From the NCBI GenBank assembly GCA_021801545.1, contig JAJYXX010000263.1, forward strand, positions 1-31,336: a stretch of DNA of 31,336 bases, given 5' to 3'. The translations under genes and the position numbers were made by a program. Shown in pieces: positions 10,481 through 26,060 of this stretch (position 1 is its first letter; each line of letters begins with the position of its first letter). A model generated the notes under the pieces. The model saw nothing but the letters and a program-made list of their open reading frames with translations, was not told the origin of the DNA and made no database searches. Source of the stretch: Chloroflexota bacterium. GTDB lineage: Bacteria > Chloroflexota > Limnocylindria > Limnocylindrales > CSP1-4.

Positions 10481-13400
10481 TCACGCCGCCGCCCACCCCT
10501 CCGACAGCACCTCCGCCTGCTCGAGGACCGTCAGCGTCGCCTTCTCCTGCTTGTCGGGCGGGTAGCCGTGCTTACGAAGGATGCGCTTGACGAGGACGCG
10601 CAGGTGGGCGCGGACGTTCTCGCGGACCGTCCAGTCGATCGTGACGTTGGCGCGGACGGACTCGGCCAGTTCGCGGGCGATCGCCCGCAGCTCCGGCTCG
10701 CCCAGCACCGCGACCGCGCTGTCGTTCGTCTCGAGGGCGTCGTAGAAGGCGATCTCGTCCTCGGACAGACCCAACGCCTCGCCGCGCGCATCGGCCGCCC
10801 GCATCTCGCGCGCGAGCTCGATGAGCTCCTCGATGACCTGCGCCGTCTCGATCGCCCGGTTCTGGTACTTGCGCAGGGCGTGCTCCAACAGCTCGGTGAA
10901 CGAGCGTGCCTCCACGACGTTCCGCCGTGAGCGGGTCCTGATCTCGCCCTTCAGGAGCTTCTCGAGGAGCTCGACCGCGAGGTTTCGCTGGGGCATCCCG
11001 CGGACCTCGGCGAGGAACTCGTCGGAGAGGATCGAGATGTCGGGCTTCTTGAGCCCGGCCGCGGCGAAGATGTCGATGACCTCGCCTGACGCGACCGCCC
11101 GACTGACGATCTGGCGGATCGCGTGGTCGAGGTCCTCGTCGGTTCGGCGTTCGCCGGGCGCGCTCTTCGCGAGGACCGCGCGCACCGCCTGGAAGAACCC
11201 GACGTCGTCGCGAATCCGAAGCGCCTCGTCGGCCGGGACGGCGAGAGCAAAGGCCTTCGACAGCTCGGTCACCGACCGCAGGAGCCGATCCTTCCCGTCC
11301 TCGAGCGCGAGGATGTGCTCCTGGGCGGCCGGCAACAGCGACAGCCGCTCCCCTGCCGTCCTGCTCACCCATCGCGACCAATCGAAGCCGTGGAAGAGCC
11401 CGAGGCAGACCTCGTACTTCTCGACCATGAGCGCGACCGCCTCGGCCTGGTCGATCGCCGTCTTCCCGGTGCCGCCGCTCTCGGTGTACGTCGCAAGCGC
11501 GCGCCGAAGCTCGTCCGCCAAACCCAGGTAGTCGACGACCAACCCGCCCGGCTTGTCCCGGAAGACCCGGTTCACCCGGGCGATCGTCTGCATCAGGCCG
11601 TGCCCGCGCATCGGCTTGTCCACGTACATCGTGTGGAGGCTCGGCGCGTCGAAGCCGGTGAGCCACATGTCCCGGACGATGACGATCCGGAACGGGTCCG
11701 CGGGATCGCGGAAGCGCCCGGCGAGCGCCTCGCGACGCGCCTTGTTCCGGATGTGGGGCTGCCAGTCGAGCGGATCCGAGGCCGAACCCGTCATGACGAC
11801 CTTGAGGACGCCGGCGTCGTCGGTCGCGGCGGTCCACTCCGGCCGGAGCGCGGCGATCTCGCGGTAGAGCTCGACCGCGATCCGCCGGCTCATCGTGACG
11901 ACCATCGCCTTGCCGTCCATCGCGGCAAGCCGGTCCTCGAAGTGATCGACGAGGTCGCGGGCGACGAGCCGGAGGCGGTGTTCGGAGCCGACGACCGCCT
12001 CGAGCTGCGCCCAGCGCGTCTTGAGCCGCTCCTTGCGCTCGATCTCCTCGCCCTCGGTCGCCTCCTCGAAGTCCGGGTCGATACGCGGGCGTTCGGACTC
12101 GAGCAATTCGAGCTTCGCGAGCCGGCTCTCGTAGAAGATCGGGACGGTCGCCCCGTCGGTGACGGCGCGGGCGATGTCGTAGACGCTGATGTACTCGCCG
12201 AAGACGGCGCGCGTGTTCGCGTCGGCCTGCTCGATCGGGGTGCCGGTGAAGCCGATGAACGAGGCGTGCGGCAGCGCGTCGCGCATGTGCCGGGCGAACC
12301 CGTCGATGAAGTCGTACTGGCTCCGGTGGGCCTCGTCGGCGATGACGACGATGTTCCGACGGCCCGAGAGGACCGGGTGCCGGTCGCCGGTCTCGCCAGG
12401 GAAGAACTTCTGGATCGTCGTGAAGACGACCCCGCCGGCGCCGACCCGGAGCTTCGAGCGGAGGTCGGCCCGATCCCGGGCCTGGACCGGCTCCTGGCGA
12501 AGGAGGTCGCTGCAGCGGGCGAAGGTCCCGAAGAGCTGGTCATCGAGGTCGTTGCGGTCGGTGAGGACGACGATCGTCGGGTTCTCCATCGCGGGCTCGA
12601 GGATGACCCGCCCGGCATAGAAGGCCATCGTCAGGCTCTTGCCGGAGCCCTGGGTGTGCCAGACGACGCCAACACGGCGGTCGCCGGGCTCCCCGCCGGG
12701 CTGCTCACCCGAGCCGTATCGGCCGGCGACCTCGCCGATCCGTCGCTCCCGCGCGGCACGCAGCGTCTCCTCGACCGCGACGTTCACGGCGTGGAACTGA
12801 TGGTAGCCCGCGATCTTCTTCGCGAGCTCGCCGCCGCCGAAGTCCTCGAAGACGACGAAGTGGCGCATGAGGTCGAGGAACCGGCGCCGTTCGAACACGC
12901 CCTCGAAGACGACCTGGAGCTCGGTCAGGCTCAGCGGGGCGTCCTCGCGGCCACCGATCGTCCGCCACGGCTTGAACCACTCGCGGCCCGCGCCGACGGC
13001 CCCGATGCGCGCCTGTGTCCCGTCCGAGGCGACGAGCGCGGCGTTGTACGTGAAGAGTCTCGGGATCTGCGCCTGGTACGTCTCGAGCTGACGGAACGCG
13101 GACCAGACGGTCGCGTTTTCGTCGGCGGGGTTCTTGAGCTCGATGGCCGCGAGCGGAAGGCCGTTCACGAAGAGGACCACGTCGGGTCGGCGGGTGTGCT
13201 GACCCTCGGCCACGGTGAACTGGTTCACCGCGAGCCAGTCGTTCGCCTCCGGGTCGTCGAAGTCGACGACCCGGACCTGCGCGCCGGCGATCGAGCCATC
13301 CGCGCGGCGGTGCTCCACGGTCACGCCATCGACGAGCATCCGGTGGAGGGCGTGGTTGCGCTCGAGCAGCGAGGGTGCGTCGGTCCGGGTCAGCTTGCGG

Positions 13401-13621
13401 AACGCGTCGTCGAGCGCTTCGGGCGGCACCGCGGGGTTGAGGCCCACGAGCGCCTGACGGAGCCGCCCCTCGAGAACGACGTCGCGATAGCTGGGATCGG
13501 TCCTCTCGGCCGCTGGTTCACCGACCGCGATATCTGGCCCGTGGAGCACCGAGTACCCGAGCGCCTCGAGCCAGGCGAGCGAGGCGTCCTCGACGACCGA
13601 CTCGGTGAAGTCGGCCGTCAT
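10481..13621 (-). CDS. hsdR: Type I restriction enzyme R subunit, 1046 aa
   Basis: PD...ELK nuclease motif ([18 protein letters not shown]), Walker [21 protein letters not shown]3387-like C-terminus. ATG 13621 overlaps the upstream stop. Confidence 0.97.
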
Positions 13622-24203: not shown

Positions 24204-24501
24204 AGAGCAACGCCTTGGTCTGATCGATGGACTGCCTGAAATAGGGGTTCTTGATGGCTGACGCGACCACCAGGTCCACCGGCCGCCCCAAGAGCCGCTC
24301 CAGAGATTCGAGCAGCCCGAAGTAGGCATCGGCGTACTGTCCCGCTGGCAGGCTCTCGAAGTCGACCAGGAAGTCGAAATCGCTCTGCTGCGGGTTGAAG
24401 TCGTCGCGCGTGGCCGAGCCGAACAGGGACAGACTGAGCACATGATGACGCCGACAGAGCTCCGCCAGCTCGGCGCGGTTGTTTTCGATCGAGGGGATCA
24501 C
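24193..24501 (-). CDS. mntA: MntA minimal nucleotidyltransferase antitoxin, 102 aa
   Basis: [17 protein letters not shown] (GS-x11-DxD); GTG start overlaps the hsdM stop. Confidence 0.9.
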
Positions 24502-26060
24502 GGGGCATCCTCCTTGCCGACACGGTAGCCGAGACGGGCGAGATTCTCACGTATGGCGGCATCGAGCCGCGCGCCTTCCTCGTATTGTGCCGCCAAGGTT
24601 TGCGTGAGGCGGCGCATCTTCTCGTCGAAGGGCTCGTCGTCCTCCTCGGCGGCCGCCGCTCCGACGTAGCGGCCGGGCGTGAGGACGTGACCGTGCTTCC
24701 GGATCTCGTCGAGCGGCGCCGCTCGGCAGAAGCCGGGCACGTCGGCGTATTCGCCCGCGCCCTCATCACCGCGCCAGGCGTGGTACGTGCCGGCGATCGT
24801 CGCGACGTCGTCGTCGGTCAGCTCGCGGTGGGTCCGATCGACGAGGGTGCCCATCTTCCGGGCATCGATGAAGAGCGTCTCGCCGCGCCGGTCGCGGAAG
24901 CGGCCGTTGCGCTTGTCGCGGGCGAGGAACCAGAGGCAAACCGGGATCTGGGTCGAGTAGAAGAGCTGGCCCGGCAGGGCGACCATGGCGTCGACGAGGT
25001 CCGCCTCGACGATCGATCGGCGGATCTCGCCCTCGCCGGACTGGTTCGTCGACATCGAGCCGTTGGCCAGGACGAAGCCGGCGATCCCGGTCGGCGCGAG
25101 ATGGCTGATGAAGTGCTGGACCCAGGCGAAGTTCGCGTTGCCCGCCGGCGGCTCGCCATAGACCCAGCGCTTGTCACCCCTGAGGAGTCCGCCCCGCCAG
25201 TCGCTGTCGTTGAAGGGCGGATTGGCGAGGACGTAGTCGGCCTTGAGGTCGGGATGGCGGTCGTTGTGGAAGGTGTCGCCGTGAGCGATCTGGGCGTCGA
25301 TCCCGCGGATCGCGAGGTTCATCTTGGCCAGGCGCCAGGTCGTGTAGTTGGACTCCTGGCCGTAGATGCTGATGTCGCCGAGCCGGCCGCTGTGGGCCTC
25401 GATGAACTTCTCGCTGCTGACGAACATGCCGCCGGAGCCGCAGCACGGGTCGTAGACGCGGCCCTTGTACGGCGCGAGCATCTCGACGAGGATCCGGACG
25501 ACGTGGGACGGCGTGTAGAACTGGCCGCCCTTCTTGCCCTCGGCGCTCGCGAACTGGGCGAGGAAGTACTCGTAGACCCGGCCGAGCGTGTCCTTCGCGC
25601 GGTCGGCGGGGGCCCCGAGCGCGATGTCGGTCACGAGGTTGATGAGCTGGCCGAGGCGCTGCTTGTCGAGGCCGGGCCGGGCGTAGTCCTTGGGCAGGAC
25701 GCCCTTGAGCGTCGGGTTGTCGCGCTCGATGGCGGTCATCGCGTCGTCGACGAGCGTGCCGATCGTCGGCTGGGGCGCGCTGGCCCGCAGGTGCGACCAG
25801 CGGGCCTCCTTCGGCACCCAGAAGATGCTCGCGGCACGGTACTCGTCGGGGTCCTCGGGGTCGGCGCCCTGGGAGCGGTCGGCCTCGAGATCGGCGTGTT
25901 TGGCCTCGAACGCGTCGGAGATGTACTTGAGGAAGATGAGGCCGAGGACGACGTGCTTGTACTCGGCGGCGTCCATGTTGTTGCGCAGGGCGTCGGCCGT
26001 TTGCCAAAGCCGCGCCTCGAGGCTGGCTTCCGGTCGCGCTGCCGTTGATCTGACCTGCAC
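24498..26060 (-). CDS. hsdM: Type I RM N6-adenine methyltransferase, 520 aa
   Basis: LW..ADALR N-terminus, [15 protein letters not shown] (SAM binding), catalytic NPPF. Confidence 0.97.

Follow-up and report, generated by a model that had tools for sequence, protein, structure and literature searches.

Toxin-antitoxin pairs, a type II CBASS and a Schlafen-ATPase embedded between the hsd genes of a type I restriction-modification locus from a Chloroflexota bacterium

Introduction

Type I restriction-modification (RM) loci can harbour defence genes between their own genes, and here we describe an unusually loaded example, the hsdM-hsdS-hsdR locus of a Chloroflexota bacterium (GenBank assembly GCA_021801545.1, contig JAJYXX010000263.1), analysed over the whole 31,336 nt of the contig, which is referred to as the window throughout. 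Defence genes that reside within loci for type I RM, BREX, DISARM and Hma have been surveyed under the term 'guilt-by-embedding', with both a genomic sink and a functional backup being weighed as explanations, and genes embedded in RM, BREX and DISARM loci served to define PDC-S09, a candidate family in PADLOC (Payne, Hughes, Fineran, Jackson 2024, bioRxiv 10.1101/2024.01.29.577857). The locus in the window resembles these cases in that extra genes are located between hsdM, hsdS and hsdR, mostly in the orientation of the host operon, and in that both of its MntA proteins, i.e. minimal nucleotidyltransferase (MNT) antitoxins, match PDC-S09. It differs in that both gaps are filled, with 11 genes on 10.9 kb, in that the cargo includes a full type II system for antiphage signalling based on cyclic oligonucleotides (CBASS), a system unmentioned in the main text of that survey (bioRxiv 10.1101/2024.01.29.577857), and in that two genes, capH and capP, are oriented opposite to the host operon.

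The textbook model of a guarded RM system is EcoprrI-PrrC, in which the gene for an anticodon nuclease lies in a type IC RM locus and the nuclease is activated by Stp from phage T4 (PMC12707154; PMC3710099). A coupling of immunity and suicide, together with a PrrC-like masking of RM-linked HEPN toxins, was proposed by Makarova, Anantharaman, Aravind and Koonin (PMC3632139; PMC3710099), and the idea that the present locus is a guarded RM system restates this hypothesis, which was published in 2012-2013 and surveyed in 2024. As in EcoprrI, genes for suicide RNases are found within the hsd operon. In contrast to EcoprrI, there is no ABC-ATPase-HEPN protein, and the HEPN toxins are HepT proteins of the DUF86 type that have an MntA of their own.

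Self-contained systems between hsdS and hsdR have been described in two pathogens. In the RRDM island of enteropathogenic Escherichia coli DarTG2 occupies this position and is regulated by RptR (PMC12255303), and in the type I RM locus of VPI-2 from Vibrio cholerae the embedded TgvAB is active when cloned alone (PMC11411939). The authors of both studies proposed that the site is a recombination hotspot and that the activities are complementary rather than interdependent (PMC12255303; PMC11411939). The window likewise shows a self-contained defence or toxin-antitoxin (TA) system inserted between hsdS and hsdR, but its cargo there is CBASS and a Schlafen-ATPase, no RptR-like first gene was identified, and the hsdM-hsdS (M-S) gap is filled as well as the hsdS-hsdR (S-R) gap.

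For the cargo itself close relatives are known. The type II CBASS from Enterobacter cloacae comprises CdnD, a synthase of cyclic AMP-AMP-GMP (cAAG), as well as Cap2, Cap3, Cap4 and the pair CapH/CapP, which derepresses CBASS upon the appearance of single-stranded DNA (ssDNA) or DNA damage (bioRxiv 10.1101/2022.04.27.489752). The present CBASS has the same gene set, a divergent capH/capP pair and structural matches to cAAG synthases and to Cap4 (7yib), but it differs in its short CapP (173 aa), in a CD-NTase that ends in …GRYGLGHRR and in the nesting of the operon in an RM locus. Prokaryotic Schlafen domains cleave tRNA when activated (PMC13462974; bioRxiv 10.64898/2026.05.29.728809), and ATPase-containing Schlafen homologues are tightly associated with RM, their activation mechanism being unknown (bioRxiv 10.64898/2026.05.29.728809; PMC13462974). 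The Schlafen-ATPase in the window shares the AlbA_2 plus HATPase_c_4 architecture of these 'Schlatpase' proteins; unlike the described ones the present copy is translationally coupled to hsdR.

From the comparison of the locus with its relatives we consider a mosaic defence island likely, built on a type I RM operon that is itself horizontally mobile and whose two gaps would be permissive to the landing of self-contained defence cassettes.

Results

Organization of the locus

The window comprises a complete contig (31.3 kb), which belongs to a fragmented metagenome bin (442 contigs, 76% complete, 2.47 Mb, 71% GC). The locus is located just 3' of an operon for a pyruvate/2-oxoacid dehydrogenase (E1-alpha, E1-beta, lipoamide dehydrogenase) and occupies positions 10481-26060 on the minus strand, in the order hsdM, two mntA/hepT pairs, hsdS, capH/capP (plus strand), CBASS, Schlafen-GHKL ATPase and hsdR, followed by a GIY-YIG-like open reading frame (ORF). 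Eleven genes fill both hsd gaps, and 10.9 kb separate the end of hsdM from the start of hsdR. As read from the translations, the catalytic motifs are intact in every named module. The hsd genes are:

24498..26060, minus strand: hsdM, methyltransferase subunit (Pfam N6_Mtase 2.2e-104, HsdM_N 7.5e-27; NPPF at residue 280; GC content at third codon positions (GC3) 0.93)
21616..22953, minus strand: hsdS, specificity subunit (Pfam Methylase_S 3e-14; GC3 0.83, 9th genome percentile)
10481..13621, minus strand: hsdR, restriction/translocase subunit (Pfam T1RH-like_C 1.5e-136, SWI2_SNF2 2.3e-76, HSDR_N 1.5e-47; GC3 0.93)

HsdM and HsdR have the hallmarks of type I RM subunits, i.e. an N6-adenine methyltransferase with NPPF on the one hand and a nuclease, a superfamily 2 motor and a C-terminal assembly domain on the other. 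HsdR additionally matches T1R_D3-like, its motifs PD..ELK (D…ELK), GSGKS and DEAH are intact, and the ATG at 13621 agrees with the alignment start of its relatives. HsdM is 66-88% identical (aa) to relatives across many phyla; for HsdS the identity is 27-46%, as expected of variable target-recognition domains (TRDs). The Methylase_S profile covers a single stretch of HsdS (ORF residues 42-224), with no profile match to a second TRD, and the length of 445 aa together with the tblastn matches at 27-46% identity over most of the relatives' HsdS is compatible with a two-TRD subunit.

Because capH and capP run convergent to hsdS, the locus is split into at least three predicted transcription units, namely hsdM-TA-(hsdS), CBASS and Schlafen-hsdR. 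With regard to composition, hsdM and hsdR are host-typical (GC3 0.93, 72nd genome percentile); hsdS and every cargo gene have GC3 values of 0.74-0.88 (1st-25th percentile).

The hsdM-hsdS gap

The first-pass annotation had placed two HEPN RNases in the M-S gap. These are present, but they are not bare, as each has an MntA gene upstream, so that the gap contains two tandem TA pairs:

24193..24501, minus strand: mntA-1, minimal nucleotidyltransferase antitoxin (Pfam NTP_transf_2 2.8e-12; PADLOC PDC-S09 1.5e-36; GS..DFD)
23856..24203, minus strand: hepT-1, HEPN (DUF86) RNase toxin (Pfam HepT-like 3.1e-19; Rx4H followed by GY, FRNILIHGY)
23553..23843, minus strand: mntA-2, second minimal nucleotidyltransferase antitoxin (Pfam NTP_transf_2 7.1e-16; PADLOC PDC-S09 4.1e-39; GS..DID)
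23209..23556, minus strand: hepT-2, second HEPN (DUF86) RNase toxin (Pfam HepT-like 3.4e-27; MRNVLVHGY)

Both pairs have the organization of type VII MntA/HepT systems, with an MNT gene (GS…DxD) first and then a DUF86 HEPN gene with Rx4H and an adjacent Tyr. The genes are tightly packed: hsdM and mntA-1 overlap as GTGA, mntA-1 and hepT-1 by 11 nt, with the ATG of hepT-1 placed 8 nt ahead of the mntA-1 stop, hepT-1 and mntA-2 are separated by 12 nt, and mntA-2 and hepT-2 again overlap as GTGA. Neither toxin reaches the equivalog cut-off of NCBIfam HepT_toxin (60 bits; hepT-1 38.1, the two proteins 38.1 and 46.2 bits), and both proteins, though members of the HepT family of Pfam, are thus not equivalogs of the characterised Shewanella-type HepT.

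The hsdS-hsdR gap

CBASS and a Schlafen protein had been predicted for the S-R gap, and both are present. The CBASS, predicted with a DNase effector, is complete and of type II, with the CD-NTase, Cap2, Cap3 and the effector in one operon (order Cap4, CD-NTase, Cap2, Cap3), and beyond the prediction it is accompanied by divergent capH and capP genes:

21021..21542, plus strand: capP-like M78/ImmA metallopeptidase, convergent with hsdS (Pfam Peptidase_M78 3.7e-22; PADLOC capP 2.7e-32; HEIGH)
20663..21034, plus strand: capH-like helix-turn-helix (HTH) repressor, divergent from cap4 (Pfam HTH_3 2e-09; PADLOC capH 1.4e-11)
18998..20518, minus strand: cap4, SAVED-fused PD-(D/E)xK nuclease, CBASS effector (Pfam SAVED 8.5e-28; PADLOC endonuclease effector 1.5e-125, from residue 177)
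17873..18988, minus strand: CdnD-like CD-NTase (Pfam SMODS 3.7e-21; PADLOC cyclase 1.4e-115; GS…DVD)
16105..17946, minus strand: cap2, E1/E2 fusion (Pfam ThiF 2.6e-21; PADLOC E1-E2 3.1e-166, from ORF residue 26)
15608..16108, minus strand: cap3, JAB/JAMM isopeptidase (Pfam Prok-JAB 9.6e-12; PADLOC JAB 1e-45; HFH…S..D; GTGA overlap with cap2)

The nearest solved structures of the CD-NTase are cyclic AMP-AMP-GMP synthases (CdnD; 7d48, 7ljl, 1e-67 to 8e-69), and that of Cap4, which carries a D…QAK motif, is Cap4 (PDB 7yib, 9e-65). The CD-NTase lacks the terminal Gly or Ala of a Cap2-conjugated protein and ends in …TTGRYGLGHRR*, i.e. in a terminal Arg, and its conjugation by Cap2 would require trimming by Cap3 or another protease. 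The cap2 frame offers three starts, GTG 17946, TTG 17889 and TTG 17859, of which TTG 17889 is probably the true one; the ATG that overlaps the CD-NTase stop (TGATG) is out of the cap2 frame.

The regulatory genes, an HTH repressor and an M78/ImmA peptidase on the plus strand opposite cap4, form a CapH/CapP pair, with a CapP that is not full-length: the protein has 173 aa and matches only positions 4-154 of the 242 positions of the capP profile. The end of capP lies 74 nt from the hsdS stop. The sole match to a sigma-70-like promoter within 9500-26400 is found in the capH/cap4 intergenic region (20614-20585), in a scan for sigma-70 promoters and terminators whose counts were not above those of shuffled sequences and which has little value at a GC content of 71%.

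Downstream of cap3 the gap contains the Schlafen gene, whose product is more exactly an AlbA_2 domain followed by a GHKL ATPase (HATPase_c_4), and an inverted repeat:

13618..15378, minus strand: Schlafen (AlbA_2) plus GHKL ATPase ('Schlatpase'; SLFN_AlbA_2 2.1e-15, residues 24-140; HATPase_c_4 1.5e-11, residues 311-390)
15385..15447, no strand assigned: inverted repeat with 21-nt arms that are 90% complementary and 21 nt apart, just 5' of the Schlafen-ATPase start

The Schlafen-ATPase has the order AlbA_2, then HATPase_c_4 and contains the acidic motif ESRVLEFK. Its TGA overlaps the ATG of hsdR as ATGA, which indicates translational coupling. On the other side, cap3 and the Schlafen gene are located on the same strand, 230 nt apart, and no T-tract terminator was called between them. 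The inverted repeat, which separates the CBASS unit from the Schlafen-hsdR unit, is a candidate for an operator or a terminator, and no further copies of its motif are present in the window (0.01 matches expected by chance). A second Schlafen-ATPase paralogue is encoded elsewhere in the bin (contig C436:4050-5702, 29% identity over 563 aa).

Recombination scars

Traces of the assembly of the locus are found at the boundary between the TA pairs and hsdS:

22943..23016, minus strand: ghost hsdM 3' end (…AANLRELGYGG*), 74 nt, overlapping the hsdS start exactly as hsdM does in compact relatives

This stretch lies in an alignment of 83 nt with the hsdM-3'/hsdS-5' junction found in compact relatives (64/83 identical; score 69 as compared to a maximum of 26 in 500 shuffles), and the same spot is matched by HsdM of 11 relatives in tblastn. 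In most close relatives HsdM ends in …NLKELGYGG*. The present hsdM has a different C-terminus, which leads into mntA-1, and for its last 60 residues the best relatives are L039 and L015, i.e. the two loci with the same MntA/HepT types (69-71% identity of MntA/HepT). This indicates that the TA pairs came with a donor hsdM tail by recombination inside hsdM.

An 11-bp exact direct repeat, CGACACGGTAG, brackets both TA pairs (23122-23132 and 24518-24528), with one copy inside the hsdM tail. A target duplication was considered and rejected, as a stretch that is not HsdM-like separates the ghost tail from the copy at 23122, some 100 nt further upstream; the repeat is possibly a junction microhomology.

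Fragments of hsdR were found outside the window. In a relative from the same family (L103:12305-12967; G151:C5) an N-terminal hsdR fragment (residues 12-231, 71% identity) is located inside the S-R gap, where a UvrD-type helicase comes earlier and the full hsdR follows the fragment after two unknown cargo genes; the fragment has the appearance of a recombination scar, the second of this kind besides the ghost hsdM tail. In the bin of the window a stray C-terminal hsdR fragment (contig C91:4994-5563, 189 aa) has 89% aa and 91% nt identity to the 3' end of the window's hsdR, with the homology ending 7 nt beyond the stop codon and a VapBC-like PIN/antitoxin pair and a LacI-family regulator as neighbours. 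Either another hsd locus left this fragment as a relic, or the bin contains a strain variant. In the window's own S-R gap a tblastn search for hsdR and hsdS fragments gave noise-level matches only. The ghost hsdM tail, the hsdR fragments and the atypical GC3 of hsdS and cargo together indicate that the conserved hsd genes serve as homology anchors, between which the middle would be exchanged by serial recombination.

Related hsd loci

For comparison, 80 loci of HsdR homologues (69-81% aa identity) were collected, of which 60 have both hsdM and hsdR in range; these 60 are the basis of the counts below. The loci come from more than 10 phyla, including Proteobacteria, Planctomycetota, Nitrospirota, Acidobacteriota, Chloroflexota, Gemmatimonadota and Spirochaetia, and from one archaeon, a metagenome-assembled genome (MAG) of Methanobacteriota. 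Since relatives this close, i.e. with 69-81% aa identity in HsdR and up to 88% in HsdM, come from more than 10 bacterial phyla and the Methanobacteriota MAG (L006-L085), their sequences imply that this type I RM family is highly mobile and has spread very widely and recently by horizontal transfer.

Embedded ORFs are found in 55 of the 60 loci and fill both gaps in 32; only 5 are compact. As 55 loci carry cargo, filled gaps are the majority state of the family and not a chance oddity. The present locus stands at the large end, with 10.9 kb between the end of hsdM and the start of hsdR vs a median of 3.9 kb and a maximum of 8.8 kb in the survey.

The cargo of the S-R gap is diverse, with 121 ORFs that fall into 82 sequence clusters, known defence families being dominant. 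With 11 cases, ABC-type ATPases of the OLD/HEC-01/PARIS/Gabija kind are the most frequent, followed by AbiJ-like Abi_C HEPN proteins (8) and an 8xMP membrane protein with a ThsB-like TIR (6); RhuM/Fic, Mrr-type nucleases, Schlafen-ATPases (4), SIR2 and an AbiP2-type reverse transcriptase also occur. None of the 60 relatives has a CBASS cyclase, Cap2 or Cap4. Homologues of the Schlafen-ATPase are embedded in 7 loci, in either gap, and in 4 of these they directly precede hsdR as the last gene of the gap.

A search of 60 genomes from the same family detected HsdR in 6; the sole genome of the same genus (86% complete) gave no match. Three of these loci, which lie in different genomic contexts, each have different cargo (a UvrD helicase and unknowns; Mrr; AAA_14/DUF4143 ATPases). 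A CdnD-type cyclase occurs in 3 of 400 genomes of the same phylum, and in the 2 contexts fetched no hsd genes are located within about 8-10 kb of it. As the S-R cargo is diverse, CBASS is absent from the 60 relatives, the cargo differs within the family and the CdnD relatives are not accompanied by hsd genes, the S-R slot looks like a permissive, defence-enriched hotspot, and CBASS here like a one-off acquisition in the RM family.

The M-S gap differs from this. MNT/HEPN modules are present there in 22 loci (NTase_sub_bind type in 18, HepT type in 4) and start -1 to +19 nt from the hsdM stop, vs none in the S-R gap of any of the 60 loci. Such a survey of homologous loci had been suggested with the first-pass annotation, with a cargo content that matches random accumulation at a hotspot as the outcome that would speak against a supersystem; this pattern is largely seen for the S-R gap and not for the M-S gap.

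Flanking genes

The claim that a GIY-YIG protein follows hsdR holds in so far as an ORF is located at this position and is linked to the fold by neighbours in ESM-Atlas and by a motif read by eye; it does not hold at the level of profiles:

9967..10254, minus strand: small stand-alone GIY-YIG-like ORF, 95 aa, 226 nt 3' of hsdR (GC pattern 0.63/0.47/0.80, coding-like)

The ORF has no match in Pfam (E up to 0.05, including PF01541), NCBIfam or PADLOC. In ESM-Atlas its feature score is 0.98 to clusters of which only 25-29% of the members have PF01541, and its structure neighbours are models of UvrC-type GIY-YIG domains (TM 0.73-0.80); the order of the GIY-YIG motif (…VYK…YTG…R…E…N) in 9967-10254 was read by eye only. 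No homologue is found 3' of hsdR in the 80 related loci.

Beyond this ORF, an SbcD/Mre11-like phosphoesterase (8135-9589) and an AAA_27 SMC-like ATPase (4809-8132) are encoded. Both genes have a cargo-like GC3 (0.82, 8th percentile) and weak or no PADLOC matches, and the pair may act either in repair or in defence. The left flank looks defence-like, with an HNH_2 endonuclease (1305-1706, minus strand), an NTP_transf_2 protein (2044-2673, minus strand) and a RES-domain toxin (3059-3697, minus strand); given these genes, the defence island may span about 25 kb. A 240-bp stretch of this flank (1548-1786) is 97.5% identical to C7:2964-3203, a contig of the same bin, and may represent a repeat element or the duplication of part of a gene. 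Moreover, HsdM of 21 relatives gives weak tblastn matches to 3283-3456 on the plus strand (22-26% identity, E 0.02-0.5, residues ~395-452), which could reflect a decayed methyltransferase fragment or chance.

As for the hallmarks of mobile elements, no tRNA gene was found in the window, and no integrase among the ORFs scanned, which were part of the ORFs in the window only. An empty insertion site was sought in three loci of the same family and not found, since the genes that flank the locus in the window, i.e. those for E1-beta of the pyruvate dehydrogenase and the SbcCD-like pair, do not adjoin hsd genes there; for this reason the insertion site is not reconstructable.

Discussion

The locus in the window is an intact, unusually loaded example of the usual embedding of defence cargo and adds no new principle. 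In the likely history outlined above, a mosaic island on a mobile RM operon, hsdM and hsdR frame a variable middle composed of hsdS and cargo. The M-S slot was filled via recombination in the 3' end of hsdM, which brought in the new tail and the MntA/HepT genes and left the old tail behind as a ghost. The S-R slot contains a type II CBASS of the CdnD-Cap4 kind, complete and regulated by CapH/CapP, and a Schlafen-ATPase that probably shares a transcript with hsdR in addition to the translational coupling. Judged from the behaviour of the families, each module may work by its own logic: HsdMSR would cut unmethylated DNA; the HepT RNases would be kept AMPylated by MntA until the supply of antitoxin fails; upon the appearance of ssDNA or DNA damage CapP would cleave CapH, raising CBASS expression, and CdnD would then produce a cyclic trinucleotide that activates the Cap4 nuclease, with Cap2 and Cap3 tuning the cyclase; and the Schlafen-ATPase, once triggered, probably cleaves tRNA. 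The layering would then consist in a spread of the modules over different phages and infection stages, and not in a physical gating by the RM complex, and the co-location may be upheld by joint horizontal transfer and because the slots tolerate insertions.

Several points weigh against this interpretation. The autonomy of the modules is inferred from the behaviour of the same families elsewhere. The Schlafen-ATPase is coupled to hsdR via ATGA, with an association that recurs in 7 of 60 loci, and in published surveys more than half of the Schlafen homologues associated with defence are linked to RM and other nucleases (PMC13462974). The order in the M-S slot exceeds what a neutral sink predicts and is the one regularity that such a sink fails to predict; a naive binomial test of the MNT/HEPN slot bias gives P 3e-9, a value that is overstated as the loci are phylogenetically related. 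The ORFs of the related loci were called heuristically (longest ORF plus GC3), and the survey used flanks of 10 kb, i.e. 6 loci with full flanks in which hsdM is more than 10 kb away from hsdR were left out and are possibly larger.

The first-pass annotation had regarded the locus as a layered, guarded RM supersystem, in which restriction is the first line and cell-death effectors fire if RM is inhibited. The layering is real, as restriction stands beside four kinds of suicide or dormancy effectors with intact motifs, and it is fair to describe the locus as a first line of defence combined with abortive back-ups. The guarding, in contrast, with firing upon inhibition of RM, is supported by no feature of the locus: CBASS has its own CapH/CapP and Cap2/Cap3 and each HepT its own MntA, none of the embedded proteins is an ABC-ATPase-HEPN of the PrrC/RloC type, nor is there a PrrC/RloC match in PADLOC, and no operator common to several modules was found in the window when it was searched with the inverted repeat upstream of the Schlafen gene. 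A functional link is left open for the MNT/HEPN modules in the M-S gap, given their position-specific recurrence. Two softer links are possible, i.e. DNA damage by restriction that acts on CapP, and a connection between HsdR and the Schlafen-ATPase or between HsdM and the MNT/HEPN modules, as suggested by the codon coupling.

A guard in the style of PrrC would hold one or more embedded effectors inactive via HsdMSR or its expression and would free them when a phage inhibits or overwhelms restriction, the likeliest candidates being the hsdR-coupled Schlafen-ATPase and the hsdM-coupled MntA/HepT pairs. In its most specific form the M-S slot would be dedicated to MNT/HEPN modules that are translated from the hsdM message, sense the expression of the methyltransferase and specificity subunits and thereby serve the modification half as an addiction or guard device, and the Schlafen-ATPase would be an HsdR-gated analogue of PrrC; if this were true, at least one embedded effector would be under physical or translational RM control, and the locus would combine a true guarded RM system with an independent CBASS layer. 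Precedents exist in PrrC, which resides in EcoprrI and is activated by T4 Stp (PMC12707154), and in the proposal on RM-linked HEPN proteins by Anantharaman et al. 2013 (PMC3710099), and the GTGA and ATGA junctions, the 4 Schlafen-ATPases among 7 that are last before hsdR, and the confinement of MNT/HEPN to the M-S gap (22 vs 0 of 60) are as expected for such a guard. Operon coupling is, however, equally expected of hitch-hiking cargo, Schlafen-ATPase homologues occur in either gap and a 29%-identical paralogue lies on contig C436, dedicated antitoxins are already present for the HepT toxins, and the largest 'backup', CBASS, is self-regulated and unique to the present locus as compared to the 60 homologues. 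Together with the lack of a PrrC/RloC-like ABC-HEPN protein or PADLOC match, this renders a guard of this kind unlikely, and its specific form with a dedicated slot is just as doubtful.

We judge it about equally improbable, if not slightly more so, that the modules are connected by a shared danger signal. HsdR-made breaks or ssDNA, in phage DNA or in self DNA if modification fails, would activate CapP, CapH would be cleaved and CBASS induced, and read-through over the 230-nt gap into the Schlafen-ATPase and hsdR may thereby allow restriction to escalate the response. Such a circuit is consistent with the activation of CapP by ssDNA and DNA damage in characterised systems (bioRxiv 10.1101/2022.04.27.489752), the divergence of capH/capP from cap4 with a promoter-like site between them and the same-strand arrangement of cap3 and the Schlafen gene with no T-tract terminator called. 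Against it speaks that it is wholly inferential, that the present CapP matches positions 4-154 of 242 of its profile only, so that the sensor region may differ, and that the 21-nt inverted repeat could be a terminator or a separate operator. Moreover, CBASS would receive this signal from any genomic position, so that the nesting is left unexplained. Finally, the contig might be chimeric for strains or species, the nesting then existing in no single cell. A bin of 442 contigs at 76% completeness, the 91%-identical hsdR 3' sequence on contig C91 and the atypical GC3 of the cargo are in line with an artefact of assembly, but hsdM, hsdS and hsdR flank the cargo in canonical order and orientation, start and stop codons overlap at the junctions (GTGA, ATGA, GTGA), the ghost hsdM tail is a biological scar and not a join, and the nested architecture with other cargo recurs in 55 of 60 relatives, including complete chromosomes, which makes a chimera highly implausible.

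The mosaic island thus remains the preferred interpretation, and with it the locus provides a clean natural case of how defence islands are assembled: hsdM and hsdR serve as anchors, specificity, TA pairs and whole signalling systems are exchanged between them, and the scars are still readable. A full CapH/CapP-regulated type II CBASS is added to the list of cargo carried by type I RM operons, and the finding that MNT/HEPN modules, present in 22 of 60 related loci, are confined to the hsdM-hsdS slot gives a quantitative lead. If it were true that any of the embedded modules is gated by RM, guarding of the PrrC type would extend to new classes of effectors.

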